DNA from: Tubulanus polymorphus
Lineage: Eukaryota > Animalia > Nemertea
Assembly (NCBI RefSeq): GCF_964204645.1
Contig: NC_134028.1
Coordinates: 14,143,653-14,207,652, forward strand
DNA length: 64,000 nucleotides
Direction: 5' to 3'
The position numbers and the translations under genes are program-made. Position 1 is the stretch's first letter, and each line of letters starts with the position of its first letter. Under the pieces are notes generated by a model. The model was given only the letters and a program-made list of their open reading frames with translations. It did no database searches and was not told the origin of the DNA. This document shows positions 8,139-52,872 of the stretch, one piece after another.

Positions 8139-8193
8139 CAATTCTACATTATACTTATTGAATTGAGTTAAATGATTTAAATATCTAATAGGC

Positions 8194-10710: not shown

Positions 10711-10827
10711 AATTAATTGTTATTTGATTTAATCATTTAAAAGTTTAATATTTGTAAAATGATTATAATATATTTAATTAAAAACTAGCAAATATTTTAT
10801 AAACTGTTTAATTTTTCTCTTAAATAA

Positions 10828-10971
10828 ATGGATGGTTTCATCCCAACTGGGAAAAGTGATTTGAAACATTATTTAGTTGCTGGAGGTTTAATATTGGCAG
10901 CATTATATTTTTACTATGAGAATATTTCAAAAGATTTGATGAATGAAAATAATAAATTGAGAAAAAATTAA
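10828..10971 (+). CDS. Small membrane-anchored protein (47 aa; may extend to ~11045 via frameshift)
   Basis: Manual translation MDGFIPTGKSDLKHYLVAGGLILAALYFYYENISK...; start lies in TAAATAAATG after a T-run, like the Polinton genes. Confidence 0.5.
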   Translation: MDGFIPTGKSDLKHYLVAGGLILAALYFYYENISKDLMNENNKLRKN

Positions 10972-12014: not shown

Positions 12015-12666
12015 TGTGATAGCCGAAATTTCATGCCTGGGTATGTTTTATTGTTTCTTTATGCAGGATTTGTCCAGTTCCTGTCGGTATTTAGTTTTCC
12101 TTATCGGTGGCGTTTTCATCACTCAAACCTGGTTGTCAGATGATCAGTGACCGCCATGTTTGACGGATCAATTGTAAACAAATAAATTATATCTTTCGAG
12201 AGACTATTGATAATTTGTTTATTCCTTCAGGTGAGAATTATTTATGCTTATTCGTGAATTCTATACTGCATTTGTCCACATTACTATTTAGAAAGTTTAT
12301 CACTTTAGTAATTTTGACTTTGAAAGTTGAATAATTCAATTCTTGTATTAGCAAATTCAATATGGCTACCACTAGTCTGTGTAAATGCTATGTATTGTAA
12401 GTCAGTGTGATAACTCATAAAATGGTTTTAATATTTATATGTGAGATGATCAGTGACCGCCATGTTTGAGAGATCAATTGTTAAGAAATAAATTATATCT
12501 TTAGAGAGACTATTGATAATTTGTTTATTCCTTCTTCTTCAGGATCACATAGGGGCGTGTTATCCCGCCGCCTTTGACGCCTTCGACCATTTTTTTCATC
12601 GAGTTAATCGGGAGTCCGAACCTACGACAGGAGCCGCAAGTGCTCACGGGCAACCAGCCTGTAACA
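12015..12666 (+). repeat. 3' LTR of the Gypsy element
   Basis: TG...CA ends and upstream PPT. Internal ~90-bp duplication at ~12445-12535. Confidence 0.7.
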
Positions 12667-12864
12667 TGATGCTCATTTATTTATCAAACAGCTATGCCAT
12701 AAAATAGAAGAAATCAATAATGAAATAGAAAGATTAAATTCAAATAGATAAAAAGATGTTGCTAAAATACCAACTTATAAATTTAAATTGTTAGCTTAAA
12801 CATCTGAAAATTATATATCTTTTCAATTAGGATGTTTAAGATTTATAGATTCATATAGATTTTT
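12667..12864 (+). pseudogene. polB: Polinton B1 pPolB, second segment
   Basis: Encodes DAHLFIKQLCHKIEEINNEIERLNS...SENYISFQLGCLRFIDSYRF, matching 49613-49805. Confidence 0.9.
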
Positions 12865-13840
12865 GATGGGTTTCGTCGTCAGACGAACCCATCTATGGCA
12901 TCGTCGACATGTCTGTCTGTATGTCTGTCTGTCTGTCTGTCCGTCTGTGGATGTTTCTTTATGACACGATTTAAGCTGTTTGTGTGGACCGACAATTCTG
13001 TAATTTCACACAGGTATTCTCTACTTGATGTAGATGGTGCAGCTTGGTTTATATTTGATTCCGATGGTTATAAGTGCTCTAATTTGGTTAAAAGATAATT
13101 AACGTTACTCGCTAGTTCAAGCCGCTGTACAGCGCGTTGCTACGACGACGCTCGATCAACATACTGGTACTCGCTGTGTAATACTGAACACGTATATACC
13201 TGTAGATATTGATCGTACTAGCACCGGTTTTAGATAGCGCGCGCGCTGATCGGTCTTAACACTTTTCGGAACTGCTGTGCTAAATGCTGAGAGGCCGAAT
13301 CTATGCGCAATCATTTATTGGGCTCGTCACATTTGATAGTGAATGGATAAATAACCGGTGTCAATGACGGTCGCTACTCCCCATCAGTATAACTCATCAG
13401 TATAAGAAATAATTCTTTCGAGTTTTTTTTTCAATCCCCGAAGTTGTTGTTACGATATTGACCTCGCCGTTTTATAAGCTTACCGATGATTCTTCTAGTA
13501 TTTTCAGGGTCACAAGACATGACGAAGTCGCCAAGTTTTGTACAAATTTCACGAAACAAACAATTATTTAGGCGGCACCTGATCTATTGATTAATTATAA
13601 TAAATAATGTTTATTTCATTAAAAATTTGTTTTATTCAAACACTACTTTCATCGCACATAGCGTGATCGGTAGGCCCTACTATTCTACGGTAGGCCATGG
13701 ACTCTTTCATGTGGTAGGCCTATTACAAATGATACAATCCGCGTGTCCGTGAATAAGTGACACGTGGTGGGCCGGGTTGTGAGGAGCATCGAAACTAATC
13801 CGTCACAAATAATAGATAGAAAACAATACCTTAAGAGGTT

Positions 13841-13930
13841 AGTAATTGGAATATCAGGGGTTCAGATCAGAGGACGAGAGGACGAGACACCACTCATCAC
13901 CACAAGTAATTTTTTCCCCTAATAAATGGG
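13841..13930 (+). repeat. Left TIR of Polinton A (contains the pPolB start codon at 13926)
   Basis: Reverse complement of 30275-30364. Confidence 0.97.
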
Positions 13931-16900
13931 GGAGAATGAACACCATCTAGAAAACAATAATGTCAATAAAAATCAATATTATTGTCAATATTGTAAAAAA
14001 TACATCGATACATCTAATAAAACACGACATGAAAAAACTGCAAATCATATAAAAAATGTAATAGATTTTGAAACTCCAGAAAATTCCAATGAATGAAAAG
14101 AAAGATTAGAAAATATGAATGTGGATGAAATAAAATGTGAAGTTTGTAACGAATTTATAGTAAAAAGGAATTATAATAGACATCTCGAATCACAAAAACA
14201 CCACCAAAATTTGAGTAATAATGTTTTAGGAAAAGATTATTTTGATAATAAACCTCAACAAGTAAAAGAATCAACTTCAAAAACAAAATCTATTTCAAAT
14301 AAACCTTACATGGAAAATGTTAGAAATTATATTGATTCACTAGAAATAAAAGATACAATTGAAATTTTAGAAACATTACATAGTAAAATTGGTCCTGCAG
14401 CTATTATATTTAGATTTTTTAAAGGTACAACAATAGAAGATTATAGTAAATTTAATGAAATAATAGAAAAAATACTAGATTTGATAACAGATGTTGAATA
14501 TCCAAAAATTAGTATCTCTGGGAAAGTAAGTTTTATAAAGTCAGAAGAAAAAATGGATTATAATATTCAAACACTCTCTGAAGAAATAATTTCAAAAACA
14601 CAAATAAAAGAGAAGTTAGAAAAATATTAAATGAATTTAAACGTCATATTGAAGAAAGATATTTTGAGGGTTCTGGTTTAACATTGAATGAAATTATATA
14701 TTTAGATTTAAATGTTTATAATACAAAAAGAAATAAAACATCAAAAAGTAATAAAATGTTTAAAAATAATTCAAACTTTATAATAGAAAAAGATATGAAA
14801 GCATCAAGTTATATTAAATTACCATTTTTATCAAAAGCAATTATAAATGTTAAAAATGAAGACAACAAATGTTTTCTGTGGGCAATTATTAGTTGCTTAC
14901 ATCCATCACAGGAAAATGTTTGTAGAATAACAGATTATCGGAAATATGAAACATTATATAAAATTGATCAATATCCAGTAACTATAAAAATGATTCCTAA
15001 AATGGAAAAAGTTAATAATTTAAAAATAAATGTATTCGAATTAATGCAATTACCAAAGACAAAAGGTGAAAATATTAAAGATTATACATTGGAAGCTTTA
15101 TATTTAACAGAATATTATGATGATGAAAATGCTATAGATTTGTTATATTATAAAAAAGATGAAAATGAACATTATATGTGGTTAAAACAAATTGATTTAT
15201 TCTTTAGAACAGAAAGTGATCATCATAATAAAATTTATCTATGTAGAAAATGTTTATCCAAATTTATGACTGAGAATACATTATTAAAACATAAAGAATT
15301 ATGTGATAATAAAGATTTTTGTAAATTAATAATGCCAACAGAAAAAGATTATAAATTGAAATTTACTAATCATAAATTTAAAAATATTGTTCCATTTGTA
15401 ATTTATGGGGATTTTGAATCATTGAATAAAGAATTAACTGATCAAGATAGAAAAGAAATATATAACAAAAAGCAATTATTAAAATCAATGGATAAAGGAA
15501 GTGAATTAAATGAAGACATAATACAAGCAAGACCTACCAATTATAAATACAATTAAAAAAGTTCATCAAAGAGCTGCTGCTTATGGAATTTATATAAAAT
15601 CAAATTATCCCGAATTATATGAAAGTCAATATATTTCTTTTAGAGGTGAAAATGTAGTTAATGATTTTTGTGATAAAATTATTGAATTAGAAAGTGATTT
15701 TACAAAATTATTAAACAAAAATAAAAGAATAGTTATGACAAAAGAAGATGAAATTGATTTTAATTATGCAACTCATTGTTGTTATTGTGAAAAACGTTTT
15801 TATTCATTTGATAAAAGAGTTAGAGATCATGATCATTTAAATTCAAAATATCGTGGAGCTGCTCATGAAGATTGCAATTTACAAGCTAAAAAAGTAAATT
15901 TCGTACCAATATTATTTCATAATTTATCAGGTTATGATACCCATCTATTTATAAAACAATTATCGGGAAAATTGGGCGCAATTAATCAAGAAATAGAAGA
16001 ATATAATGCTATAAATGAAGCAAATGTAAGAAAATATGATTTTAAACTATTAGCTAAAACATCTGAAAATTATATTTCATTTCAATTTGGTTGCATTAGA
16101 TTTTTAGATTCTTATAGATTTCTAGCAAGTTCATTAGATAATTTATCAAAATCATTAGTTGATAATGATTTTGTTATAACTCGATATTATTATCCAAATG
16201 ACCAAGATTTTAAATTATTGAGATATAAAGGCGCAATTCCTTATTCATTTTATAAAACACACGATGATTTCAAAGAAACGAAATTATTGAAAGATCAATT
16301 TTATGATAAATTAAAAGAGGAGTATGTGAAAGACGAAGTTTTTGATAGAACATTAAATATTTGGAACCATTTTAAGATGAAAAATCATGGTGAATTAGTT
16401 GATTTATATTTAAAATCAGATGTTATGATATTGGCTGACATATTTGAAAAATTTAGAGAAGTTAATTTGAATCATTTTAATGTTGATCCTTGTTATTGCT
16501 ACTCTAGTCCTGGTTTAACCTGGCAATGTGGTTTAAAATATACAAATGTAGAATTAGATTTATTAAAAGAACCAGATATGGTTTTATTATTTGAAAAATC
16601 AATTAGAGGTGGAATTAGTGGTGTTATGGGAGATAGGTATTTTAAAGCAAATGATGAATATAAATTATTATATATTGACGCCAATAATTTATATGGTTGG
16701 GCAATGATGCAACCTCAACCATATAAAAATTTTATATTAACAGAAGTTGAAAATGATGATAAAACTAATTGGGAAAGCGCAATTATGAGTTTAGAAGATG
16801 AAGCACCAATTGGTTATTTCTTTGTAGTTGATTTAGAATATCCTGAAAATATAAAGTTTAAAACAAGAAACTTACCTTATTGCCCAGAACATTTAACTGT

Positions 16901-18986
16901 AGATGATAGTTATTTAAGTGAATACCAGAAGAAAATAAAACCGAAAGATCATGTTTTTACAGAAAAATTAATACTTACTCAAAATAATAAATACAATTAT
17001 ATTGTTCATTATAGAATGTTAAAATTTTATCTAAAACAAGGAATGAAATTAAAGAAAGTACATAAATATATTGAATTTAATCAATCAAAGTGGTTAGAAA
17101 AATATATAGATTTCAATACTCAACAGAGAACAATATCAAAAACAGATTTTGAGAAGGATTTTTTTAAATTAATGAATAATAGTTTTTATGGAAAAACATG
17201 TGAAAATATTAGAAATAGAAATGATATTGAATTAGTGAATAATTATGAAAGATTAAGGCATTTACAATCAAGTCCTAGACATTTAGGAAATAAAAGGTTT
17301 GAAGATTATTTAACCGCAGTAAAATTAAAAAGAACATCCATGAAATTTAATAAACCTATATTTATAGGTTCAACCGTTTTAGAAGTTTCAAAATTACTAA
17401 TGTATAATTTTCATTATAATGTTTTGCAACCACTTTTTTGGGAAAAACAAATTCTATACTTCGATTCTGTAACAGCTGACACCCCAATATTATTAAAATG
17501 TAATAATAAAATATTGGTAAGAAGAATTTCAGAAATAATTCCAAAACAAAATGAATGTTATATTTCATATGGTGAAAGAGAATTAATACAAATAAATGGA
17601 TTAATGGATGTTTGGACAAGAAATGGATGGAAAAAATTAAATAATATTATTAGACATAAAACAAATAAGAAAATCTATAGAGTTAGAACTAAATTAGGAT
17701 TTGTAGATGTTACAGAAGATCATAGTTTAATTAAACAAAATGGTGATGAAATAAAACCAACTGATATAAAAATTGGAGATGAATTATTACATAAAAGATT
17801 TTACCCAAGAATGAATCATATGTCATTTGATGAAATAATTGATAATATTTATAATATAGAACCCGAAACATTGGAAGAAAAAGAATATTTTATCAAAGGA
17901 TTTTTCATGGGTGATGGTTCAGCAGGTGTGTATAATTATGTTAGTGGAACTAAATATTGTTGGTATTTATGCAATCAAGACTTAAAATTATTAGAAAGAA
18001 TTAAGAAATTCTGTGAAGAAGTTTATCCAAATAAAACATTCAAAATCATAGATGTTATGAAATCATCAGCAGTTTATAGAATACTTGTAAATAATCCTAA
18101 AGATTTTGCTATAGAGTATAATGATGAATTCTATATTCATGCAATAGTGAAAAGTAATACTTCGACAAAAGAAAAGATAGTTCCAGATTATGTATTAAAT
18201 GCAAAAAATAATTTAAGAAAATGGTTCTTCATTGGGTTCTATGCCGCACATGGCACTAAAAAATTTACAAAGGATAAAAAGATAACCTTTGCACAGAAAG
18301 GAAAAGTTGCTATATCAGGATTGAATATATTATGTAATTCATTAGGCTTCAATATGAATATTGGGTTGATTAAATCTAAACCAAATTGTTTTAATTTAAG
18401 GCATGTAGAAAAAGATTTAACTGAAGAAGTTAAAGATTTATTTGAAATATATAACCCAACTGACTATGTTTATGATTTATCAACAGATGATGGAACATTC
18501 AATTCTGGGTTCCCATTAATCCAAAAAAATACTGACGCCTACATACTAAAAATCAAGACAAATGACATAACAAAAGACTTAAAAACATTAAAACCTCATT
18601 TTGATTTTAGCAATTATCCTAAAGATCATGAACTATTTAGCAATGATAATAAAAAGATTCCTGGTAAGTTTAAAGATGAATTAGGAGGTGATGAAATGAT
18701 TGAATTTGTTGGGATAAGAAGTAAAATGTATAGTTACAGAACAAAAGATCATGAAGCTAAAAAGTTAAAAGGAATAACAAAACATGTGGTTGATAAACAT
18801 ATAGAATTTCAAGATTATATAAAGTGTTTATATAAATCAATTGTAATGAAACACAAAATGAATTGTTTAAGATCAGAAGATCATGAGATGTACATTAATG
18901 AAGTTGAAAAAACTAGTTTAAATCCATTTGATGATAAAAGGCATATTTTAGATGATGGTATAAAAACATTACCTTATGGCCATTAA
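13926..18986 (+). pseudogene. polB: Protein-primed family B DNA polymerase of element A, with intein (stop at 14094, frameshifts ~14630 and ~15540)
   Basis: YGDFES (Exo I), RDHDH...AHEDCN, FHNLSGYD (Exo II), YLKSD (Exo III), DANNLYG (motif A), KLMNNSFYGK (motif B), YFD|TD (motif C split by intein), KMY, KLKG. Confidence 0.95.
17466..18530 (+). other. Intein (355 aa) with LAGLIDADG homing endonuclease, in pPolB motif C
   Basis: Block A SVTADTPILL, block B VTEDHSL, LAGLIDADG helices FIKGFFMGDGS and FFIGFYAAHGT, block F VYDLSTDDGTF, C-terminal KN followed by +1 Thr. Removing it restores YFDTDA, matching the empty site YFDTDS at 51163-51180. Confidence 0.95.
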
Positions 18987-19345
18987 AACATAAAATCAAT
19001 ATCATCATACTCGAAATCACTATTGGCTTCTTCATTTTCATTTAATTGTTCAGGTTCTTCTTCCATTCCATTTTTCTCATTTAAATAAAGTTCTATCTTG
19101 TTCCACATTTCATCTCGCTCTCTTTGTTTCTTTTTGTTTGTTAATTCATCAAATGGAATTATAATATCTAGGTTTAAATAATTTACAATCTTATTTAAAA
19201 AGAATTCATAATTTATTGAATCTGTTATTCTATTTTCCAAATAATACATTAATATTTGTTTGAATATTTTTTTTATATTTTTCATATCTTCTTCTGTTAA
19301 TTTAGGTTTTTCATAATAATCGTTAAATAATAAATATAAATACAT
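18983..19345 (-). CDS. Hypothetical protein with acidic C-terminus (possibly frameshifted tail of 19297-20286)
   Basis: ORF track; overlaps the upstream minus-strand ORF. Confidence 0.45.
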   Translation of the reverse strand: MYLYLLFNDYYEKPKLTEEDMKNIKKIFKQILMYYLENRITDSINYEFFLNKIVNYLNLDIIIPFDELTNKKKQRERDEMWNKIELYLNEKNGMEEEPEQLNENEEANSDFEYDDIDFMF

Positions 19346-20286
19346 TTTCTTTTGTTAAATGTTGGTGGAATAATTGTTTTTATAATATCTTTTTTAGTTA
19401 TTTCACCATTTTTATTTTCTATTATTTTCATTTTTTCAAGCCATTGCATATATTCTGGTGTATGATCTTCTATAGAAAATATTTTAAAAATTTCATCAAG
19501 ATAATTTAATTTTGAATCTATGAGAAAATTTCTAGTTTTTTCTTCACCCCATAAATTCTTTTGCCATCCACAATCAACACAAAATAACACAGTACCTTCT
19601 TGGGTTAAGGTCGCATAACTACATTGTGGGCATTTTTGTTTATAATTTATTGGTAATAGATCTTCATTAAGCTCTTGGTATTTTCTTACGTTTTCTTTAT
19701 GTTTTATTGTTCTATTATGTAGATTTGAATTACTTGTTGTAATAATCAATTTACAATATTTACAATAATATGTTTTTCTTGTTAATTCATTATATTGTTT
19801 TTCTAACTTTTCAACTGTTTCTTCATTATCTGGTAACGTTTTCTCATATTTTATTTTTTCTAATAAATTATTTTTTCTTTCATTGAATTCAGTTTCAAAT
19901 TTATTAGAAATTTTATCTATATGTGCTTTACGAAATTGATGATTCTCCCAATCTTCTATATTTTCAGGACAAAATCTTATTCGACAATGCTCACATAAAT
20001 TATTCTTTACATTATTCTTGTCATAAAATAAAAAAGGTCTTTTCCAAATAGGTTCAACTTCAACAGAATTATTATTACTTTCGTTACTACCAACATTAAT
20101 TATTAAGTCTTTAATTCTACACTTCTCTGAATGTTTTTTAACATAATTTCTTGAGAATAATTTATTACATTTTGGGCAGTTTATTTTAGGGGGTTTATAA
20201 TTTTCATCATGTTTTTTCATATGTCGAGCCTTATTACTTTTTCTTAGAAGTTCACCACAAATTTCACATGCTATCTTCTCTTCCAT
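19297..20286 (-). CDS. Multi-zinc-finger protein (C2H2-type)
   Basis: Repeated CxxC...HxxxH motifs (CEIC...HMKKH, CPKC...H, CKYC...HNRTIKH). Start in TAAATG. Confidence 0.8.
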   Translation of the reverse strand: MEEKIACEICGELLRKSNKARHMKKHDENYKPPKINCPKCNKLFSRNYVKKHSEKCRIKDLIINVGSNESNNNSVEVEPIWKRPFLFYDKNNVKNNLCEHCRIRFCPENIEDWENHQFRKAHIDKISNKFETEFNERKNNLLEKIKYEKTLPDNEETVEKLEKQYNELTRKTYYCKYCKLIITTSNSNLHNRTIKHKENVRKYQELNEDLLPINYKQKCPQCSYATLTQEGTVLFCVDCGWQKNLWGEEKTRNFLIDSKLNYLDEIFKIFSIEDHTPEYMQWLEKMKIIENKNGEITKKDIIKTIIPPTFNKRKCIYIYYLTIIMKNLN

Positions 20287-20355
20287 TTATTTAGAAAAAA
20301 ATTTTATTAAAATTAATTTTTAGTGATGAGCGGTAATTTTTTTATGTTATAAATA

Positions 20356-21114
20356 ATGGTAGAATTAAAAGAATACAGAATATTTGTTGATTCTAGAAGG
20401 CTTACAAATTATAAATCACATAATTTACTAGTACAATTAGATAGAGAATTTAAGAATTGTGTAGATTTAAAATTAGTAAATATAAGTTTATGTAATTCTT
20501 TTTATAATATATCGGATAAAACTTTCGAACATAGAGGTTTTGCAATTCATATGAAAAATAAAAATAAATGGTTTTATCTAATGTTAAAACCAGGGTTATA
20601 TAATTTAGAAACATTAGCCCAAGAAATTAATCGGAGAGCACGATTAAAACTTGGAAGTGAATATAAATTTTCAATTAGATTTATAAAAAGTGATAGTTCT
20701 GATAAAATTAAAATAAAGTTAGATGATGAAAGCAAACATGCATTTATGGTAAGGAAACCTTTAGCTAAACTGTTAGGAATTAAACCACAAATTGTTACAG
20801 GAAACGTAGACGGTAATTCAAATATAATACCTTTTACACATTTTTATATTTATTGCAATTTAATCGATCCTACAAAAACATTTGAAGCAACTAAAGATAC
20901 AACATGTAATTCTGGTTTACTAAACATTTTACCATTGAAGAATGTTAAACAATTTGGAACGCAAATAAATTATAATTTAACAGAATGTGATTTTAAACCT
21001 TGCATTCCTCATTTTAATAATTTTAGATTAGAAATAAGAAATCATAATGGATACTTAATTGATTTGAATAACTTTCCTGTAATTTATGAATTAGTTATAA
21101 GATGTAAAGAGTAA
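20356..21114 (+). CDS. Minor capsid protein (penton, single jelly-roll)
   Basis: IFVDSR N-terminus and FYIYCNLIDP...FRLEIRNHNGYLIDLNNFPVIYELVIR C-terminus are typical of Polinton/virophage pentons (by recall). Confidence 0.75.
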   Translation: MVELKEYRIFVDSRRLTNYKSHNLLVQLDREFKNCVDLKLVNISLCNSFYNISDKTFEHRGFAIHMKNKNKWFYLMLKPGLYNLETLAQEINRRARLKLGSEYKFSIRFIKSDSSDKIKIKLDDESKHAFMVRKPLAKLLGIKPQIVTGNVDGNSNIIPFTHFYIYCNLIDPTKTFEATKDTTCNSGLLNILPLKNVKQFGTQINYNLTECDFKPCIPHFNNFRLEIRNHNGYLIDLNNFPVIYELVIRCKE

Positions 21115-21130
21115 TTTTTCACCTTTATAA

Positions 21131-21472
21131 ATGAATATAACTGTTGGACCGAGTATATGTTTTGGGTTTGATTTTAAACATGGTAAAGAAATGAGAATTA
21201 AACTAAATGATGTAATTACTGATATAAAAAGTAAATCATTTAACAATGCATCAATGATTGATAAAGAAAAGTATAATATAGAAAAAGTAATTGATTTAAT
21301 TAAATCACCTTTAGAATATTATGAATTAAATAAAGATGGAATTATAGATGATATCAAAAACATATTATCCAAAATATATGATAATCATAAAACTAGTAAT
21401 GAAATAAATGTTGAAATAATCATAAATAAGTTAACTAAATATTTTGAAGATAGTAATTTTTTTGATAAATAA
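21131..21472 (+). CDS. Hypothetical Polinton protein
   Basis: Conserved in the copy at 52873-53237; TAAATG start. Confidence 0.75.
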   Translation: MNITVGPSICFGFDFKHGKEMRIKLNDVITDIKSKSFNNASMIDKEKYNIEKVIDLIKSPLEYYELNKDGIIDDIKNILSKIYDNHKTSNEINVEIIINKLTKYFEDSNFFDK

Positions 21473-21694
21473 ATGAGTGATAATAAGTGGATAATAACTG
21501 GATTATATAATGGCGCATTACTATCAGTTGGAACTGTTGGTTATTCAATGGTATTAAAAAAAGTATTCAAAATGGGAAGTGTTAATGTTGATAGATTTGA
21601 TATAAATGATATTTTAAAGTTAACATTAGCAGTTACTTTATCTAATTTAACTATTGATTATTTGGAAAAACAAAAATATATTCCTCCCATATAA
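21473..21694 (+). CDS. Small hydrophobic/membrane protein
   Basis: Near-identical copy at 53238-53459; two hydrophobic stretches. Confidence 0.75.
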   Translation: MSDNKWIITGLYNGALLSVGTVGYSMVLKKVFKMGSVNVDRFDINDILKLTLAVTLSNLTIDYLEKQKYIPPI

Positions 21695-21719
21695 ATGCAT
21701 AATTTTTTTTGCTAAATAA

Positions 21720-22142
21720 ATGGCTTCTGCAATTATAACTATTATAGGATCGGCAATTGTTAACGCTTTAGCATTTACTGGTGGTGGTTATTTATTTAAA
21801 CATATTGATAAAAATAGTTCATTAGGAGAACAAAGAAGACATAACTTAGCGTTAGAGAAATACAATAAAGCTGCAGAAGAATATAGAGAAAAGAGACAAA
21901 ACTATATGGATTACATCAATAAAGAATTATATGATCAGAAGATTTCACATAGAGATTTTCAATCAGTTGATGATGCAATGAGTTTATATAACGCGGTAAC
22001 CAATAAAGAAAAATTACAACTATACAAACCCAAATTATCAGATTATTATACCCCAAGTAAAGAACAACAGAAATATGAAATAATTTGGATTTTAGGTGGA
22101 ACAGTTATTGTTATATTTGTTGCTTATAAGTTTACTAATTAG
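21720..22142 (+). CDS. Membrane protein (N- and C-terminal hydrophobic segments)
   Basis: Copy at 53484-53906; IWILGGTVIVIFVAY C-terminal anchor. Confidence 0.78.
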   Translation: MASAIITIIGSAIVNALAFTGGGYLFKHIDKNSSLGEQRRHNLALEKYNKAAEEYREKRQNYMDYINKELYDQKISHRDFQSVDDAMSLYNAVTNKEKLQLYKPKLSDYYTPSKEQQKYEIIWILGGTVIVIFVAYKFTN

Positions 22143-22161
22143 TAATTTTTATTCTAAATAA

Positions 22162-22596
22162 ATGGAAGATAAAGTTGATAGTATTGATATTATTCCTCAT
22201 GATATAAATAAAACTAAATTAAAAACATATTTAGAAAAACAAATATTAGAATTTGAAAGTGACTTGGAGATAAAAAAGAAAAAATATTTAAAAAGTAAAA
22301 TTATATATTATTTGATTATAAGTGGTTCGGTTACAATTAGTTCTGTAATAACATTTCTAGCAATATTCAGTCCATTAACACCTTTAGCTATATCAATTGG
22401 TGTGTTAGGATTAAGTTCAAGTGTTTTAACTGGTATAAGTTCAAAATTAAATATAAAAAGTAATAAAGAAAAAATTAAAACTAATATAAAAGAAATAAAT
22501 AAATTAAAGAACACACTAGATTATATAATAAGTTTAAATGGTCATATAACAGTTGAAGAACAAGATAAATTATTAAAAGAATTAATAAATTATTAA
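22162..22596 (+). CDS. Two-TM coiled-coil membrane protein
   Basis: Central hydrophobic hairpin; copy at 53926-54351. Confidence 0.78.
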   Translation: MEDKVDSIDIIPHDINKTKLKTYLEKQILEFESDLEIKKKKYLKSKIIYYLIISGSVTISSVITFLAIFSPLTPLAISIGVLGLSSSVLTGISSKLNIKSNKEKIKTNIKEINKLKNTLDYIISLNGHITVEEQDKLLKELINY

Positions 22597-22612
22597 TTTT
22601 TTAATTATATAA

Positions 22613-24019
22613 ATGGCAGATAGTTTTCCAAAAGCTTTCCAATATAATAAATCAATTAAATATAATATTCCAGCAATAGATTTTAATAAAGATATTACAT
22701 ATAGAAATGAAGTTTTAGATTCATTAACTAATTTAGAAATTTATATTACTGAAACTAATAATTTTAATGCAAAGATGGAAAATATATTTCATGTATATTT
22801 AATTAATTTTAAAAAATTAAAAGATGAAAAACAATGGTTATTAAAATCTAATATGAAGTATTGGCAGAATCAATTAAATTTTGCTGTTTATTGTGCAACA
22901 ACAGGATGTGGAATAAGTTGGAATGATCATTTGAATAATTCTAAATATAAACTAATTCAAAGTTTATTTAGATTTCATACATACTTTCAAATCAGAATAA
23001 TATTAAATGAATTAGAGTGCGCTTTACCAGGATCTAGATATTTTAAAGAATTAGATAATAATATTAATTTATCAAAGTTTTATAAAATTTGCAATGAATT
23101 TAATATAGATATAAATAATTCTGATTTTAGAACAAAAATTGGAACAATAAGATCACTTCCTTGCCCTAAAAAGATATATTGTAAAAGGTATATTGCAGAA
23201 TATTGTGCACTTCCCATACCATCTAATAGTTTTTATAATATCTATAATAATAAATTAGGTTATGGTAAAATAGAAACAAAGGATTTAGAAACATTAAATT
23301 TCAATAAATTACCAAAATTTTATGATAATTTAAAACAAGAAAACAATAATGGTTGGGTTTATTTTATTTTAGAAAATAGTGAAGGTTTTACAAAATCAGG
23401 TATAGAAAGAATTAATCAATCTATTAGAACTTATTTGATTTGTATTCTAGGATCACAAGTTGAAACAAGATCACCGATAATTGGAAATTTGAATACATCA
23501 TTCGATACACAAAAACAGTTTAAAGTTTTATTTGAAGATTCCATTCATAATGATAAAAATAGATCGATTCCAGAAAACATTATAAGATATCAAAATTATT
23601 TAGATAAATCTCATGTAAGACTTAATTATTGTATAGGCCCTAATCTATTAATTATTTCTAATGATTTAGTATTAAAGATGGGAAATATAATTGGTTATAA
23701 TAATCTAATTAAAACTGCAACAATAAATAATTCATTTGGATTAAATGATATAAATAAAAAGATTATTACTGCTCCAAAATTAATGGAAGGTGAAAAAAAT
23801 AAAAAACACATTCAATCAACAGAAACTAAAACTAAGAATATTAAATTAAATAATGATTCTAAAATAAAAGATTACAATACTACAGAAAATAATAGAACTG
23901 ATATTATTCAACATGATATAATTAAACTAAATGATGATAATAAATCCCATGAAAATACTAAATTAGCTATAACTTGTATAGGAATTGTAATCGGAGGAAT
24001 ATTATATTTTAAATTTTAA
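22613..24019 (+). CDS. 468-aa uncharacterized protein with C-terminal membrane anchor (candidate virion surface protein)
   Basis: Intact ORF ending LAITCIGIVIGGILYFKF; copy at 54368-55757. Confidence 0.8.
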   Translation: MADSFPKAFQYNKSIKYNIPAIDFNKDITYRNEVLDSLTNLEIYITETNNFNAKMENIFHVYLINFKKLKDEKQWLLKSNMKYWQNQLNFAVYCATTGCGISWNDHLNNSKYKLIQSLFRFHTYFQIRIILNELECALPGSRYFKELDNNINLSKFYKICNEFNIDINNSDFRTKIGTIRSLPCPKKIYCKRYIAEYCALPIPSNSFYNIYNNKLGYGKIETKDLETLNFNKLPKFYDNLKQENNNGWVYFILENSEGFTKSGIERINQSIRTYLICILGSQVETRSPIIGNLNTSFDTQKQFKVLFEDSIHNDKNRSIPENIIRYQNYLDKSHVRLNYCIGPNLLIISNDLVLKMGNIIGYNNLIKTATINNSFGLNDINKKIITAPKLMEGEKNKKHIQSTETKTKNIKLNNDSKIKDYNTTENNRTDIIQHDIIKLNDDNKSHENTKLAITCIGIVIGGILYFKF

Positions 24020-24035
24020 TTTTTTTATTATATAA

Positions 24036-25463
24036 ATGGATGTAGAAGGTGTAGAAGATATTGGAATGGATCCTTTTGATGAACCTAACATAACTGATGA
24101 ACAACCACCTGATTTTGATGAAACAAGTTTTAATGATGGTAATGAACCAGAATATAACAATAATTTAAATATGCCTGAAAAATGCTGAATCACAATTAAA
24201 TCCTGAAAATTTAGACCCAGATTTAGTAAAACAAGATTTAGATAATTTAAACAAAATACCTAAATTAGAAGATTTAATTGAAAAATCTAATTTTAACATA
24301 AATGATGAAGACGTTGGACTTTTAGCAGATCAATTAAAATTTTTAGATAATGGTAAATGTTATTATCGTTTGAAAGGTGATTATTATATTGATATCACTT
24401 ATAAAAATAATAAAAATAAAATATTATCAGAATCAACTTTAGAAAAATTAAAACCAGATAGAATTAAAATAATAAGTAATAGTAATGAAATAACTGATGT
24501 TACACAAAAAGAAATAGATGATAATAGAGATGTATTTAAACAAAGAATTAATGAATTATTTGAAATAATCAAAAAGAAATCAGAAACAGAAACAACTTCT
24601 GAACAGAATATAACTTCCAAAAATAGTAAACTTAGATCAAATAAAGTTCCAATTGAAAAACTTTTACCGAATGGATTACTTGATGCAACAGATCAAGAAT
24701 TAGAAGATTTAGATATATTTTCTGATAAAGCAATTAGAGAAATTATTAGTATAAGACTTGCATCTGATAAAATTGCACATAATAAAAGTATAAGAGATTT
24801 TAAAATTAGAACTTTAGAAAAAGAATTAACTGATAAAAATAAAGAAATAGAACAATTAAAGTCTGATTTAGATCATCAAGTAATTGATGAAATAGAATAT
24901 AGACAAAAAGAATTACGTTTAGAAAAAGAAAAAGATGATTTAGAATATAACATAGAATTACAAAAAGAAGAAATTAAATTATTGTTAAAATCATATGATT
25001 ATAATATTAATAGATTAAAAGTTATTTTTATAGATTTGTTGATTAAACCAAATTCTGAAATATCATTAAAAGACAGGATGAAGTTATTATTTAAATTAGA
25101 AGGAATAACAATTCTTTCAATTCTAACAGCTGTAACTATGTTATTTACAACAATTGGTTTAGCAATATCAAATGCTTTGAAATCTACTCCTACTCCCACT
25201 CCTAATAAACCAGATAAACCTCCAAGCAATAATTCTATACAAGATAAAGTTAAAGATGGTTTAAAGAAATTAGCAAAATATTTATGGAACTATCTAAAAA
25301 ATCTGCTGCAGCATTACCAGGAGTTATTGCTTCAATTGTTGGTTTTATATTGAAATCTGCAGGTAATATTCTTAACTTTGCTGCTGAACATATTATTTTA
25401 TTTTTAATCACAGTTGTAAGTGCTATTATTTTTGGGTTAGTAAATATGATTAAAAATAAATAA
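24036..25463 (+). pseudogene. Acidic/coiled-coil protein with C-terminal TM segments (two frameshifts)
   Basis: ATG in TAAATG at 24036; central ORF 24370-25353; homolog at 55774-57202. Confidence 0.75.
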
Positions 25464-25483
25464 TTAATTTTTTTGTTAAATAA

Positions 25484-26731
25484 ATGAGTGGGAGTTATAT
25501 AAGTCCTTCTAAGATTTCTAGAATATCTAATGCTATTAAAGCAGAAAGATCACATCATATAATTACTCATAACCCTTCAAATATTAATCCCGATGAAACT
25601 TTATACGTTAGAATCCCTCGATTAACACAAAATAGTTTTTATGTTCCAAACAGTATTTATTTATCAGCTGATATAAAAGTAATCGGTAATAATAATAATT
25701 ATGTTGTTGATAATGTTGGAAGATATTTGATTAAAAAGTTAACAATAAAGATTGGTCCAGAAACAGTTTTCTCATTAGATGATTATAATTTATTTATGCA
25801 CTATAAAGATTTATGGTTAACTAAAGAAAATAGAAATAATATGATATTTCAAGGAATTCAATCAGAAAACCAAAATAAATTAAGATCTGAAGCCAATAAC
25901 GCAATAGTAAATAATGACGTAGATAATTTGATTAAAAAGATTTATGGAAGCAAATATAAAATTCCATTAGACTTTGAATTGATAAATAATAATGCACCTT
26001 TATATAAATACGCAATTCAAGAAGATATTATATTTGAGATAACATTTGCTCCTGTAAATGAAATTGTATTATCTAGCGTTGTTAAAGATATGAGTTATAA
26101 ATTATCGAATATATGTTTAGAATATGATACAGTAACTGATGAAAATATTTCAAGTATAATTCAAACTCAATACAATCAAGGATTTTCATTATTATATGAT
26201 TATATTGATAAATTTAAAACTGTAACTATTAATGCAAATGATGAAATAATTAATGAGAATATTAACTTTCCTAGAAGATCTATTAAAGGTATATTAATAT
26301 TTTTTACTATTGGAACGTATACTAATGGCGCAATAAATGTTGATAATTATTATAATCCTGAAATAACAAAAGTAGAAATAACTATCGAAGGTATAGCGAA
26401 TAAAATATTTTGTCAAGGAATGAGAATGATTGATCAATGGGTAGAAATTAAAAAACATTTTATGAATGAAAAAGTAAAATCATTTGAAAATTGTAACATT
26501 AATCAAATTGATTATTATACCGGTAATAAATTTGCATTATGGGTAGATTTTAGAACAACTGAAGATAATTCATTACATGGTTCTGGGAAAAAATTACAAA
26601 ATACAAAAGATGGAATACAATTATTTATGAAAAAGAAAAAGGGAATGAAAAATTTTAAAATGCATATTTATATTATATCTGACGCACAATTAAATATTGT
26701 AAATTCTCAATTAGATAGTATTCAATATTAG
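25484..26731 (+). CDS. Major capsid protein (putative double jelly-roll)
   Basis: 415 aa, beta-rich, with typical Polinton MCP-like segments (IKKLTIKIG, YKIPLDF, LSNICLEYD, MHIYIISDA) and a position next to integrase/ATPase. Fold inferred, not computed. Confidence 0.75.
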   Translation: MSGSYISPSKISRISNAIKAERSHHIITHNPSNINPDETLYVRIPRLTQNSFYVPNSIYLSADIKVIGNNNNYVVDNVGRYLIKKLTIKIGPETVFSLDDYNLFMHYKDLWLTKENRNNMIFQGIQSENQNKLRSEANNAIVNNDVDNLIKKIYGSKYKIPLDFELINNNAPLYKYAIQEDIIFEITFAPVNEIVLSSVVKDMSYKLSNICLEYDTVTDENISSIIQTQYNQGFSLLYDYIDKFKTVTINANDEIINENINFPRRSIKGILIFFTIGTYTNGAINVDNYYNPEITKVEITIEGIANKIFCQGMRMIDQWVEIKKHFMNEKVKSFENCNINQIDYYTGNKFALWVDFRTTEDNSLHGSGKKLQNTKDGIQLFMKKKKGMKNFKMHIYIISDAQLNIVNSQLDSIQY

Positions 26732-26761
26732 AAATATAAAGTTAAAATTAAGGATATATAA

Positions 26762-27888
26762 ATGAGTGGTAAAAAACTCCTAATACTAAAGAACAATATT
26801 TAAGAAATTTATATTACAACCCTGAGAGTTCGGTTGCTTATTCTTCTACTAAAAATATATGGCGTAAAGTAAAACAAGATAAATTAGATAAGATAATCCC
26901 ACAAAATTTAGTTAAATATAAAGATATAAATGAATTTATGTTAGAACAACCAACATATACAACACATAAAAAAATTGTTAGAAAATATAAAACTCGTAAA
27001 ACTATGGTAAGTTATGTAGATCAACAGTGGCAAGGAGATTTAATTGATATGAAAAATCTTAAAAAAGATAATAATGATTATTGGTGGATATTGAATATAA
27101 TTGATATTTTTAGTCGTTATGTATGGAGCTTCCCACTTTATAGAAAAGATGCTGCACAAACATCACATGTTTTAAGAAAATTTCTTTCAGGTGGTAAACT
27201 AAAACCAGAAAAAATTCAATTTGATGATGGAAAAGAATTTGATAATTCATTAGTTCATGAACTTTTAGATTTTCATAATATTAAATATTTTTCGACAAAA
27301 TCGGATAAAAAAGCAGCAGTTGTTGAACGATTTAATAGAACATTGAGAACAAGAATGTCAAAATATTTCACAGCAAATAATACTTATAAATGGATTGATG
27401 TTTTACCAAAATTTATAGAAGGATATAATAATTCTTATCATTCTTCTATTGGAATGAAACCTATTGATGCTAGAAAACCTGAAAATGCTGAAATTGTTTG
27501 GAATAATTTATATGGAGCATTTCTTGTTGATGATTTTGGTGAACCTAAATTTAAAGTTGGTCAAAATGTTAGAATTTCTAAGTATAAAAAGATATTTGAC
27601 AAAGGATACGATCGAAATTTTACTAGAGAAATATATAAAATAAAAAAGGTAATAACAACAAAACCATATGTCTATAAATTAGAAGATTTAGATGGTGAAG
27701 AAGTTGATGGCTACTTTTACGAAGAAGAATTAAGTTTAACTACTGAAAATCTAGAACAAGAATATAAAATTGAAAAAGTACTAAAAACAAAAACTGTTAA
27801 AAGAAAAAAATATTCTTTAGTAAAATGGGTTGGATGGCCAGATAAATTTAATGAATGGATATTATCAAGTAAAATTAAAAATATATAA
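26762..27888 (+). CDS. Retroviral-type (RVE) integrase with C-terminal chromodomain (5' frameshift; main ORF 26938-27888)
   Basis: WQGDLID...IDIFSRY...QFDDGKEF...VERFNRTL DDE core; YKIEKVL...VKWVGWPDKFNEWI chromodomain. Confidence 0.93.
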
Positions 27889-28497
27889 ATGAATAAGGAA
27901 TTATTCATATTTGAACCTCATAATATGTTAATTTCTGGTGTAACAAATTGTGGAAAAACTTATTTTATATTAAATTTATTAGAAACTGTTTACAAAAACT
28001 ATTTTGATAATATAGTATTATTTTGTCCAACATATGAATTTAATCAAACTTATGATAGAAACATTACTAGAAATAATAAATTTATTATATTAGATCCTAA
28101 AACAGTAAAAGAAAATTTAGATAATTGTATAAAAATAGCAATTGATATTTATAAAGGATCAAATACATTATTTATCATAGATGATTGTGCTAATCTACAT
28201 GATTCAAAAGTTAGAGAAAGTGAGTTATGTTATTTAGCTTTTTCTGGCAGACATTTTGGGATAACAACTTGGGTTTTAAATCAAAAATATAATTCAATTG
28301 TTAAAGACTTTAGAGAAAACATTAGATTTCTAGTTTTATTCTACAATAAAGATAGAAAATCGATGAAAAATGCACTTGAGGAAAATGATATTATTCCACA
28401 TGATTTACATAATGAATATATGGATAAGTTGAAAAATATTAAAAGATCAAAATTACTATTTAGATTACAACACCCATTTAAATATGAATTTATTTAA
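27889..28497 (+). CDS. A32-like (FtsK/HerA) genome packaging ATPase
   Basis: Walker A GVTNCGKT, Walker B FIIDD, GRH motif, Q...RxN. Confidence 0.92.
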   Translation: MNKELFIFEPHNMLISGVTNCGKTYFILNLLETVYKNYFDNIVLFCPTYEFNQTYDRNITRNNKFIILDPKTVKENLDNCIKIAIDIYKGSNTLFIIDDCANLHDSKVRESELCYLAFSGRHFGITTWVLNQKYNSIVKDFRENIRFLVLFYNKDRKSMKNALEENDIIPHDLHNEYMDKLKNIKRSKLLFRLQHPFKYEFI

Positions 28498-28499
28498 AT

Positions 28500-28870
28500 T
28501 CAATTAGTTTGTTAATCTAGTTGAATTCTAGTTATTGGTAGTTGTAACAAAAATCAAATAGATTTAACAATATTTTAACTAGCTTGTTAATCTAGTTTAA
28601 TTCTAGTTACATTCTAGTTGAATTCTAGTTGTTAGTAGTTGAAACAAAAATCAACTAGAATGTAACTAGAAATAAACAAAAACAACAATATTTCAACTAG
28701 CTTGTTAATCTAGTTGAATTCTAGTTACATTCTAGTTGAATTCTAGTTGTTAGTAGTTGAAACAAAAATCAACTAGATTTAACAAGAAATAAACAAAAAC
28801 ACTAATATTTCAACTAGCTTGTTAATCTAGTTGAATTCTAGTTACATTCTAGTTAAATTCTAGTTGCAAC
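28500..28870. repeat. Non-coding repeat array (~118-bp units of CTAGTT/GAATTC subrepeats)
   Basis: AACTAGCTTGTTAATCTAGTT recurs at ~28577, ~28695 and ~28812. Confidence 0.85.
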
Positions 28871-28899
28871 ATCACACAATTAATTTTTTTGTTATATAA

Positions 28900-29454
28900 A
28901 TGGTAGGTGAAAAGAAAATAAAATCTAAAAATGGTGATGTTCCAATTGAAAAAACTTTAGATGATTTAGGAATAACAGAAACAAAATTAACTCCAGATGA
29001 TGGTGCTTTAAATAATGTTACAACAAATAATAATTATGAATATTATCTTTATTGTAAACATCAATTAGAAATATTAATAGCATCTGGAAAATGTAAAAAT
29101 TTTGTTGGTAAAAATTTAACTTATAATGAATTAGATACAATGAAATCAGATGAAATTATTAGATTATTTAAGATTTATGAAGCCGCGAGAACAGCTAGAA
29201 TTAATGATGCGATATCAGAAAATGTAGTAAAAGGTTATAGTAAATTATGTAATTATATACTACCAATTGAAGATGAAAATAGATTATATTCCGATTTAAA
29301 AAATGATTATTTAGTTACGACAGAATTAAATAAATGGATTGGATATTTATCATTTCAATTAGGTGGATTTATGACATTATTATCAACTGGGGTTATAACA
29401 TTTTCAAATATTGAAAGTAAAAATATTTCTATAATAAATGAGCGAGGTGGATGA
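28900..29454 (+). CDS. Conserved hypothetical Polinton protein (C-terminal hydrophobic segment)
   Basis: Homologs at 36170-36740 and 60899-61500. Confidence 0.8.
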   Translation: MVGEKKIKSKNGDVPIEKTLDDLGITETKLTPDDGALNNVTTNNNYEYYLYCKHQLEILIASGKCKNFVGKNLTYNELDTMKSDEIIRLFKIYEAARTARINDAISENVVKGYSKLCNYILPIEDENRLYSDLKNDYLVTTELNKWIGYLSFQLGGFMTLLSTGVITFSNIESKNISIINERGG

Positions 29455-29791
29455 AGTGAAGAAAAAACCGAGATCACAGAAACAAATTGAATGGTCTCGG
29501 CAATTAGGAATTAAATCACAAGAATATAAAAAAGCTGTAAAAGAAAAAATAAGTAATAAAAATGTTAATAAAAATAGTGAAAATGTTGTTATTTCTAATC
29601 CTTCTAATGATAGAATATTTGATAAATATTTATATTTTACAGTTGGATTTGTAATTGTATTCATTTTGATTGGGTGTAATTGGTATAAGAAATCAAATAA
29701 AATTCATGGTATTAGTAATTCTGAACCAACTGCTATCAAAAATGAAAGTACTTCTGAAATTCCAAAATTGATAATAAAAAAAATGGATTAA
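29438..29791 (+). CDS. Small single-TM protein with basic N-terminus (KKKPRSQKQI)
   Basis: Homolog at 36737-37072. Confidence 0.78.
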   Translation: MSEVDEVKKKPRSQKQIEWSRQLGIKSQEYKKAVKEKISNKNVNKNSENVVISNPSNDRIFDKYLYFTVGFVIVFILIGCNWYKKSNKIHGISNSEPTAIKNESTSEIPKLIIKKMD

Positions 29792-29851
29792 TATTTTAGA
29801 AAAAAAGCAAAAAAAAATAATTTTTTTAATTAATTAAATATTAATTGAATA

Positions 29852-29914
29852 TCTAACTACTTTTGTCTATCTATGAGGAGCAATTAAATTGTCCAGATAA
29901 GTCATTTCGGATTC
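29852..29914 (-). other. Conserved ~65-nt structured non-coding element (copy 1)
   Basis: Also at 35797-35862 (+) and 61733-61799 (-); hairpin with compensatory changes. Confidence 0.6.
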
Positions 29915-29952
29915 TAGATATTCATTATTTTTATTAATCTATTTTTTTAAAT

Positions 29953-30279
29953 TTAATCAACAATTTCTAAATCATGATGGCCATCTTCATTTTTCCCATG
30001 ATATATTATTTTAAATCCTACTAAATCTTTCAATTCCTCCATACTCAATGAAACCCATTTATCGGGTAAAAACACTTTAAATTCTCGCGATGTACTAACA
30101 TTACAGTAGCTTAAATTAGCTGATACTTTCTCTCCATATTTAGTTTTTATCTTTTCTAATTTTAATATTTTATGTTCAATTTCTTTTGTAACATCAACTA
30201 ACTTTTTTATTTCAAATTGTTTTTTTGCTGGTTTTATTCTGTTATTTATTGTTGCTAAGAATGCTTTTCTATCTCCCAT
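29953..30279 (-). CDS. Conserved small protein (possible OB-fold/ssDNA-binding, inferred)
   Basis: Starts inside the right TIR. Homolog at 51729-52082 shares KYG...F(K/R)xxLPD...GKNExGHH. Confidence 0.7.
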   Translation of the reverse strand: MGDRKAFLATINNRIKPAKKQFEIKKLVDVTKEIEHKILKLEKIKTKYGEKVSANLSYCNVSTSREFKVFLPDKWVSLSMEELKDLVGFKIIYHGKNEDGHHDLEIVD

Positions 30280-30364
30280 TTATTAGGGAAAAAAATTACT
30301 TGTGGTGATGAGTGGTGTCTCGTCCTCTCGTCCTCTGATCTGAACCCCTGATATTCCAATTACT
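30275..30364 (-). repeat. Right TIR of Polinton A
   Basis: Reverse complement of 13841-13930, followed by TSD GAGGTT. Confidence 0.97.
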
Positions 30365-32654: not shown

Positions 32655-33700
32655 TCTGTAACAGCTGACACCCCAATATTTTTAAAATATATTAATCAAA
32701 TGTTAATTAGAAGAATTTCAGAAATAATTCCAAAACAAAATGAACTTTATATTTCGTATGGTGAAAAAGAATTAATACAAATAAATGGATTAATGGATGT
32801 TTGGACAGAAAATGGATGGGTGAAATTAAAAGAATATAATTAGACATAAAATAAATAAAAAGATTTATAGAGGTAGAACTAAATTAGGATTTGTTGATGT
32901 TACTGAAGATCATAGTTTAATTCAACAAAATGGTGATGAAATAAAACAAACTGATATAAAAATTTGAGATGAATTATTACATAAAAGATTATACCAAAGA
33001 ATGAATTATATGTCATTTGGTGAAATAATTGATAATATTTATAATATAGAACCTGAAACATTGGAAGAAAAAGAATATTTTATCAAAGGATTTTTTATTT
33101 GAGATGGATCAGCAGGTGTGTATAAATATGTTGAAATAAATATTGTTGGTATTTATGCAATCAACATTTGAAATTATTAGAAAGAATTAAAAAATACTGT
33201 GAAGAATAAAAAAGAATTTCCAAATAAAACATTTAGAATCATAGAATACACGTAAATAATTCAAAAGATTTTGCTATAAAATATAATGATGAATTTTATT
33301 TTCCTGCAATCATTAAAAGTAATACTTCAACCAAAGAAAAGATTGTGCCAGATTATGTATTAAATTCAAAATATGATTTAAGAAAATGGTTCTTCATTGG
33401 ATTTTATGCTGCAGATGGTTCAAAAAACTATACGAAACAGAAAACTATATCTTTGACACAAAAAGGAAAAGTTGCTATATCAGGATTAAATATATTATGC
33501 AATTCATTAGGATTTAATATGTTAGTAAATATTAGAAAGGATAAACCAAATGTATTTCAATTAAATATTGATGCATGTAAAAATTAACTAACAGAAGAAG
33601 TTAGAGATTTATTTGAAATATCCAATCCTACAGAATATGTTTATGATTTAACAACTGAAGATGGTACATTTAATTGTGGATTTCCATTAATCATAAAAAT
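32655..33700 (+). pseudogene. Degraded allele of the pPolB intein (LAGLIDADG)
   Basis: SVTADTPIFL...VTEDHSL...FFIGFYAADGS...VYDLTTEDGTF...IK(N)|TDS, at the same site as 17466-18530. Contains stops and frameshifts. Confidence 0.92.
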
Positions 33701-41537: not shown

Positions 41538-41615
41538 TTATTTACTCACTCACCAATTTACTCAATTAACCTGTCCTCCTCTGTATATATATACCCTGTT
41601 TTTAATCTATATCTT

Positions 41616-51000: not shown

Positions 51001-51683
51001 GATGAAAATCTAGCCGCAGTTAAAATGAGAAGAACAAGTATGAAGTTCAATAAACCTATTTATGTTGGAGCATCAGTTTTAGAATTATCAAAGTTATTAA
51101 TGTATAAATTTTACTATAACGCATTACAACCACTTTTTGGAGAAAAACATATAGAAATATTATATTTTGATACTGACAGTTAGATATTAAAGATAAAAAC
51201 TAATAAAATAACAGATGATTTAAAAACATTAAAACATCATTTTGATTTCAGTAATTATCCTAAAAATCATGAATTGTTTAGCAATGATAATAAAAAAGTT
51301 CCCGGTAAATTCAAAGACGAGGTGGCGAAGAAACGATTGAATTCTTCGGTATTAGATCTAAAATGTATTCATATAAAACTAAAGAACATGAAGCTAAAAA
51401 GTTAAAAGGAATAACCAAAAGTGTAGTAGAAAAGAATATTCATTTCAAAGATTACATCAATTGTATATTCAATGAAGAAGTTAGAAAACATAAGATGAGA
51501 TGTTTAAGATCTGAAGATCATGGAATGTTTATTGAAGAAATTGAAAAGATAAGTCTAAACCCATTTGATGATAGAAGATATATTTTAGATGATGGAATTC
51601 ATACAGTTGCTTATGGTTGTAATTTAGATGAATACTTAAAATTTAAAAGAGAAGAAACAAAAGATAAGGAAATAATGAAATGA
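48022..51683 (+). pseudogene. polB: Polinton B2 pPolB, intein-free allele
   Basis: All pPolB motifs; uninterrupted YFDTDS at 51163-51180; several premature stops. Confidence 0.93.
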
Positions 51684-52082: not shown

Positions 52083-52099
52083 GAAAATATGTAAAATAA

Positions 52100-52857: not shown

Positions 52858-52872
52858 TTTTTTATTATATAA

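Follow-up and report, generated by a model that had tools for sequence, protein, structure and literature searches.

The PolB of Mimivirus carries an intein of 351 aa within motif C (YGD/TDS, the slash marking the insertion point), with the splicing residues Ser1, Asn and Thr+1, a TxxH block and a nested LAGLIDADG endonuclease (Ogata et al. 2005, PMC549080). Also described are inteins of Anaeramoeba and inteins within viral-type DNA polymerases encoded on nuclear scaffolds of algae and protists (Gallot-Lavallee et al. 2023, PMC10710043); the main text of that report mentions neither Polintons nor animals. In the protein-primed polymerases (pPolBs) of Polintons, nuclease inserts of the HNH and VSR types are on record (Jeong et al. 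2023, PMC10748475; Krupovic et al. 2024, PMC11071308). The type with a VSR insert was reported from mollusc and marine nematode Polintons (PMC10748475), and Krupovic et al. suggested that such nuclease inserts derive from intein invasions (PMC11071308), while the words 'intein' and 'Hint' are absent from the main text of Jeong et al. A motif NX histidine has been described for Ser1 inteins (Pasch et al. 2023, PMC10189870). A full-text literature search, outside of which lay most subscription papers and supplements, returned no report of an intein either from a Polinton pPolB or from the nuclear genome of an animal.

We analysed an intein in motif C of a Polinton pPolB, found in a window of 64 kb (the whole stretch of DNA under analysis) that holds three Polinton copies. 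It shares with the pol-c inteins of Mimivirus and other Nucleocytoviricota, as far as these are described in PMC549080, the motif-C site, Ser1/Asn/Thr+1, TxxH, the LAGLIDADG domain and a similar length (355 compared with 351 aa). However, those inteins sit in RNA-primed PolBs, whereas the Polinton intein sits in a protein-primed PolB (PF03175) of an integrated, multi-copy element; and unlike them, the members from Polintons group in a clade of their own, and a single genome contains both occupied and empty alleles. The inteins on algal and protist scaffolds resemble it in being virus-borne, in lying in a eukaryotic nuclear genome and in their proposed non-allelic spread, but according to the main text of PMC10710043 they reside in giant-virus or host genes and not, as here, in a self-replicating Polinton of a probably animal host. 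The HNH and VSR inserts are likewise nuclease domains within Polinton polymerases, and the pPolB studied here itself has an HNH/EndoVII-like insert, whereas a related polymerase (P0097) has a VSR insert. In the accessible text of the two reports (PMC10748475, PMC11071308), however, no Hint domain and no motif-C insertion are described for such inserts, whereas the window intein is complete and lies at the catalytic site. What appears new is thus a pol-c allele in a new class of host protein and a new setting; pol-c inteins themselves are known. We assign a probability of about three in four to our main reading, that a pol-c-type intein occupies the active site of a Polinton pPolB, likely homing among many copies, in what is probably an animal genome.

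Table 1. Positions of the intein, its parts and the Polinton features in the window
Feature	Positions	Strand	Remarks
Intein, 355 aa (SVTADTP...LIQKN), Ser1...Lys354-Asn355	17466..18530	+	pPolB motif C, Polinton copy 1
N-terminal splicing (Hint) region, ~residues 1-112	17466..17801	+	Ser1, R63-H64, T83xxH86; boundary from the secondary structure of the model
LAGLIDADG endonuclease domain, ~residues 113-317	17802..18416	+	Pfam, model, alignment
LAGLIDADG helix 1	17889-17918	+	D150 retained
LAGLIDADG helix 2	18225-18254	+	conserved acidic residue absent in copy 1
C-terminal splicing region	18417..18530	+	block F D337, terminal Lys-Asn; Thr+1 at 18531
Decayed intein, Polinton copy 2, same junction	32655..33700	+	frameshifts, stops; helix 2 acidic residue kept
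Empty allele ILYFD/TDS, Polinton copy 3 (decayed)	51142..51201	+	junction 51171/51172; alignment to occupied copies
Polinton copy 1, 16.5 kb	13841..30364	+	TIRs, AGT...ACT ends, TSD
pPolB gene, copy 1	14115..18986	+	three frame pieces: 14115-14630, 14756-15556, 15735-18986
rve integrase with chromodomain, copy 1	26938..27888	+	PF00665, E 1.3e-9
A32-type packaging ATPase, copy 1	27889..28497	+	PF04665, E 3.5e-13
Putative major capsid protein, copy 1	25484..26731	+	presumed label

An earlier note on this DNA had proposed a 355-codon in-frame insertion, YFD/SVTADTP...LIQKN/TDA, in motif C of the polymerase, and this was borne out. The ORF of the third frame piece contains the insertion in frame, with zero stops and flanked by YFD and TDA (none of 20,000 base shuffles of the insertion was stop-free), and the junction is fixed exactly by the empty allele in copy 3. 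All of the splicing residues lay where that note had put them, namely Ser1, T83xxH86 in block B, D337 in block F, N355 and Thr+1. By these features the insertion is a class 1 Ser1/Asn/Thr+1 intein of the pol-c type, and is predicted to splice. The profile searches proposed in the same note agreed with its assignment: TIGR01445 (intein_Nterm) scored 30.2 bits, above its cut-off of 24.5, and the Pfam families Intein_splicing (E 4.6e-7) and LAGLIDADG_3 (E 2.2e-4) matched slightly under their cut-offs. His64, which follows an Arg, is nearly invariant in the family alignment, and the R63-H64 pair is likely to be motif NX. In class 1 inteins the penultimate residue is usually, but not universally, His; copy 1 has Lys354 instead, and among 109 family members the position is H in 48, K in 47, S in eight, F in five and Q in one. 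The description as a full homing-endonuclease intein holds for the two LAGLIDADG helices and the architecture, but the acidic residue of helix 2 is replaced by His in copy 1, so that 'full' describes architecture and not activity. This residue is kept in the 12 other full-length Polinton inteins, and both acidic residues are present in 12 of the 13. A chance ORF or assembly artefact was rejected in view of the second copy, the reads of another study and the intact relatives, and a Hedgehog-type Hint domain in view of the internal endonuclease, the terminal Asn and Thr+1.

An AlphaFold model of the copy 1 intein built from a 21-row alignment reached pLDDT 88 and pTM 0.90, and was used instead of a single-sequence fold, for which pLDDT was only 35. 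The model predicts a Hint fold, with the two LAGLIDADG helices in a DOD fold. Its best PDB fold matches were full homing-endonuclease inteins (7qsu, E 6e-18; 2cw7, 1dq3 and 1vde), the proteins named being TliVMA, PI-PkoII, PhoVMA, PI-PfuI and PI-SceI, with I-DmoI also among the matches; sequence identity to the full solved inteins was 13-18%. The Arg-His pair aligns with a Lys-His pair of the 173-aa polymerase intein 9hth, which we take to be a PolB16-like intein. Ser1/Thr+1 ester chemistry and fold are shared with the cysteine-independent Ser1 inteins PolB16, as far as described in PMC10189870, PI-PkoII (2cw7) and TliVMA (7qsu), but PolB16 is split, whereas the copy 1 intein is contiguous and has a penultimate Lys.

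The identification of the host element as a Polinton in the earlier note was upheld. Copy 1 shows the Polinton/Maverick traits of TIRs (93 bp, 13841-13933 and 30272-30364, 98% identical), a 6-bp target-site duplication (13835-13840 and 30365-30370), a pPolB (PF03175, E 1.6e-18 for ORF 15735-18986), an rve integrase and an A32 packaging ATPase. Its polymerase contains motifs A, B and C in addition to the EndoVII/HNH-like insert, and a putative vOTU-like motif read by eye. Polintons also have a double jelly-roll major capsid protein; the ORF taken here as the major capsid protein, a label that we assume, had no match in Pfam, PHROGs or PDB sequences. An adenain/Ulp1 maturation protease, a trait of adintoviruses (Starrett et al. 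2021), had no Pfam match in the 11 non-polymerase ORFs of copy 1 that were scanned (four short ORFs were left out). Two frame changes, at ~14.6 and ~15.5 kb, interrupt the polymerase, both upstream of the intein. All three Polinton copies of the window are broken; copy 1 is a decaying element, and is unlikely to yield a whole polymerase or an active endonuclease. A giant-virus contig misread as a Polinton was rejected in view of PF03175, the TIRs, the target-site duplication and the integrase.

The copy 2 polymerase gene lies in two parts (12666-12864 and 30637-34150), split by an insertion of later date within which copy 1 and its target duplication lie; thus copy 1 landed after copy 2. Several other elements surround them. 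A non-autonomous element (7088-11388) has inverted ends of ~300 bp (91%) that start like the end of Polinton copy 3 at 47347, and within it a 24-bp unit is repeated ~106 times (8195-10703), reading as long open frames. In a Penelope-like retroelement (38627-41733), the RT (39947-40987) is flanked on either side by inverted halves that bear GIY-YIG (96%). A decayed Gypsy-like element (1317-7080), with remnants of protease, RT and integrase, lies inside another Polinton polymerase fragment (1-1318), and its end repeat is found again at 12020-12188.

The two inteins of the window and the empty site allow the histories of intein and polymerase to be compared. The flanks of the copy 2 intein are 90.8% identical to those of the empty copy 3 over 480 nt upstream and 89.2% over 420 nt downstream, compared with 76.7% and 78.5% to copy 1 over the same lengths, whereas the intein of copy 2 shares 87.9% identity with that of copy 1. 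In the comparison of these two copies, third codon positions differ at 120/298 in the flanks and 71/342 in the intein (p 1e-7), and fourfold sites at 25/37 and 19/66 respectively (p 2e-4). Identity falls at the intein edges, to 71% at 31-100 nt upstream and 70% at 1-30 nt downstream. The copy 2 polymerase is thus close to copy 3 and its intein close to copy 1, so the intein likely passed between two Polinton families after their split. A tract of high identity limited to the intein is what homing would predict, and is likely to be its trace. In the endonuclease domain, codon positions 1 and 2 differ between the two copies at 8.4% and position 3 at 22.8% (p 3e-6), a pattern by which this domain is judged to be under purifying selection between them. 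The same holds for the C-terminal splicing region (p 2e-4), while the N-terminal region gave a non-significant p 0.11. Between copies 1 and 3, a structural block (20351-26386 in one, 52094-57940 in the other) is 92-94% identical and the polymerase blocks 74%, which on this pattern of identity is a module swap by ordinary recombination between the two Polinton families.

Read depth was measured with 1,934 Mb of reads that carry the same species label but stem from a different study and sample. The mean depth was 209 over the intein and 380 over its flanks, a ratio of 0.55; the intein is present in about half of the polymerase copies detectable at 85% likeness. The copy number can be bounded at 11 to 324 for assumed genome sizes of 100 to 3,000 Mb. 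At the helix 2 codon 143 of 151 reads disagreed with copy 1, showing that the damage is private to copy 1.

The same intein was found in motif C of other pPolBs (P0094, P0095, P0101, P0103, P0063 and P0097), several of them unbroken precursors, such as P0094 with 1,693 aa and P0095 with 1,537 aa (from a cluster of 136). The Polinton inteins fall into five or more divergent lineages, between which identity is 41-64%. P0097 is a VSR-type pPolB, a separate class with an N-extein alignable only in short pieces, and its intein is 49% identical to that of copy 1; we infer that the intein reached this second, distant class in at least one jump. Among the 120 nearest polymerases, motif C was empty in 100, occupied in six and unreadable in 14. 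On a polymerase tree of 68 rows (124 stretches thinned at 88% identity), the occupied or empty state changed at least 11 times, nine of the changes being forced by starred branches, and occupied and empty polymerases form pairs at 79-99.5% identity. At depth the intein tree largely matches the polymerase tree, so much of the intein history may be vertical with losses. An old acquisition followed by repeated loss and re-invasion fits best, the change counts being blind to gain as opposed to loss. With the 13 full-length members in a single clade (below), these inteins are an old Polinton family rather than the product of a single recent jump.

P0235, P0241 and ~30 other empty pPolBs have YMD/CDS in place of D/TDS at the insertion site, which, speculatively, could confer resistance to the endonuclease. 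One empty pPolB is labelled 'Sulfurimonas sp.', probably because DNA of its host was binned with a bacterium. Two other Polinton inteins gave no matches when scanned against IMG/VR, and a scan with the polymerase gave three Polinton-like contigs, none with the insert. In a metagenome scan (17 of 64 parts), 79 of the 80 retained loci could be parsed; 64 of them start at YGD, and a pPolB was recognised in none.

For the relationship to giant-virus inteins, we note that the label 'giant virus' rests here on Pfam architecture, GVMAG contig names and the neighbour genes of two loci, with no per-row taxonomy. In a tree of 109 rows the 13 full-length Polinton inteins form one clade (SH-aLRT 100) among giant-virus-type PolB inteins. 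In a mixture-model tree of 66 rows the Polinton clade (100/100) has as its sister (98/92) a giant-virus group ending G[FTY]PLIxKN, and the deeper nodes nesting the two together have 100/96 and 99/97. No named archaeal pol-c intein was among the tree rows, and the GTDB genomes held distant archaeal inteins only and no usable pol-c outgroup. When 30 rows were added, the Polinton clade stayed (100) and its sister group was unstable. The best 150 matches among 1.84 billion representatives comprised, by a crude sorting against five references, 137 PolBs other than pPolB, one pPolB, one topoisomerase and 11 unsorted proteins, and Megavirus PolB ranked fifth in the viral fold search at 27% identity. 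The nested position in the tree with NCLDV pol-c inteins accords with the earlier note, as does the kinship with giant-virus PolB inteins, which include the nearest non-Polinton relatives (uncultured members with the G[FTY]PLIxKN ending, 39-44% identity), Mimivirus itself lying outside the comparison. The intein directly follows the first aspartate of motif C, and this site together with its affinity in the trees marks it as a pol-c allele as defined in PMC549080. The note's inference of a giant-virus jump is revised in that this was not a single recent event: a pol-c-type intein is present in a Polinton pPolB, but in at least five lineages within one clade. A recent giant-virus jump into copy 1 was rejected because identity to the copy 1 intein reaches 64% among other Polinton inteins but 44% at most among those of giant viruses. 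We infer that the intein was captured once, long ago, from the corresponding motif of a giant-virus PolB and then resided for a long time in Polintons. Of the 18 nt around the site, 4-8 differ between the empty Polinton allele and 14 giant-virus loci; it is therefore plausible that an enzyme of a giant virus made the first cut, although this would have been a rare non-allelic event.

The same intein family also occurs in other proteins. P0182, by name a DNA polymerase delta catalytic subunit of the green alga Chloropicon primus, has a related full intein at the same motif-C site (residues 759-1100). P0099, P0183 and P0196-P0212 include type II topoisomerases with 12 inteins of the family in one clade at two sites, mostly D/TDG, which is similar to PolB motif C; these represent another non-allelic jump. 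P0038 has a divergent member (residues 76-404) at WMD/.../TDM in a non-polymerase protein without a Pfam match.

We propose the following course of events. Once the precursor has been translated, an acyl shift at Ser1 would form an ester, aided by His64 and His86 as in class 1 chemistry; Thr+1, aided by Asp337, would take over the ester, and cyclisation of Asn355 would restore motif C as YFD-TDA. Because the insert separates the two motif-C aspartates, the polymerase would be dead without splicing. The released LAGLIDADG endonuclease, as the sequence pattern suggests, would cut empty pPolB genes at motif C, and repair would copy the intein in, the dispersed Polinton families providing empty targets within one genome. 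Intein-free copies would have arisen through loss or would never have been invaded. In the history suggested by the trees, the single old capture from a giant-virus PolB and the Polinton residence would have been followed by at least one jump to the second pPolB class.

The host is probably an animal, as judged indirectly from the relatives of the genes in the window. The three nearest pPolB clusters (0.94-0.97) are 95-96% eukaryotic and mostly from Arthropoda, and the nearest clusters of the flanking Penelope RT are mostly from Arthropoda, Cnidaria, Chordata, Rotifera and Nematoda, many with an HTH_animal domain. Should element and intein be as described but the host a large-genome protist, an alga, a fungus or a co-assembled symbiont, the intein would resemble those of viral-type polymerases in algal and protist nuclear genomes. 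Viral PolB inteins on algal scaffolds are indeed on record (PMC10710043, main text), Polintons are known from protists (PMC11071308, accessible text), and one pPolB look-alike cluster with a lower score (0.84) is mostly from Preaxostyla. No host gene was found in the 64-kb window, only transposon nests of Gypsy, Penelope and several Polinton pieces, which leaves room for such a host; however, gene-free nests of this kind would suit a large invertebrate genome, and animal phyla predominate both in the three best pPolB clusters and in those of the Penelope RT. We therefore consider a non-animal host quite unlikely.

The spread of the intein might, alternatively, be passive: gained once, inherited with the polymerase, repeatedly lost and moved by ordinary recombination, with an endonuclease that drives nothing now. 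The module swap between copies 1 and 3, the damaged helix 2 of copy 1, the agreement of intein and polymerase trees at depth, and change counts that do not distinguish gain from loss are all in keeping with this. It is nevertheless quite unlikely in our judgement, because the tract of high identity that copies 1 and 2 share does not extend past the edges of the intein, because the endonuclease domain shows purifying selection, with both acidic residues in 12 of the 13 inteins, and because the VSR-type pPolB that carries the intein is too distant for homologous recombination. With regard to origin, the direction from giant virus to Polinton is not fixed statistically, since an AU test did not reject a root that would leave the Polinton branch outside every giant-virus intein (p 0.33). 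The Polinton lineage might be a sister or the source of the giant-virus pol-c inteins, or its donor, for instance a protist Pol delta, might be missing from the sampling. The long stem to the Polinton clade, its unstable sister group and the related intein at the same site in the C. primus Pol delta would fit such an origin, but the Pol delta intein lies far off in the tree, three trees put the Polinton clade among giant-virus inteins, and the rare GxPLIxxN ending is common to both. Furthermore, the giant-virus members are far more numerous and diverse, whereas most pPolBs are empty. An origin other than from giant viruses is thus unlikely, although less so than passive spread, and capture from a giant virus followed by homing among Polintons remains the reading that we prefer.

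Going further, we lean slightly towards the view that active homing inteins have long had a reservoir in the Polintons of animal germlines. On this view an intein of giant viruses entered a protein-primed polymerase long ago, now sits in about half of the detectable copies of this animal, is still moving between Polinton families within the genome and has spread to a second class of polymerase. If this is true, animal genomes encode true self-splicing inteins, and multi-copy elements give them endless empty targets. If the host is an animal, the locus would be a counter-example to the description of inteins as absent from animal genomes, although its intein resides in a virus-like element rather than in a gene of the host. 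The intein also records, at the genetic level, a contact of Polintons with giant viruses, and shows that the boundary between RNA-primed and protein-primed PolBs can be crossed by an intein via their common motif C. With occupied and empty alleles in one genome, it offers a natural system for measuring homing between dispersed copies, and new Ser1/Thr+1 inteins and LAGLIDADG nucleases with an evolutionary history in the eukaryotic nucleus may be obtained from the family.
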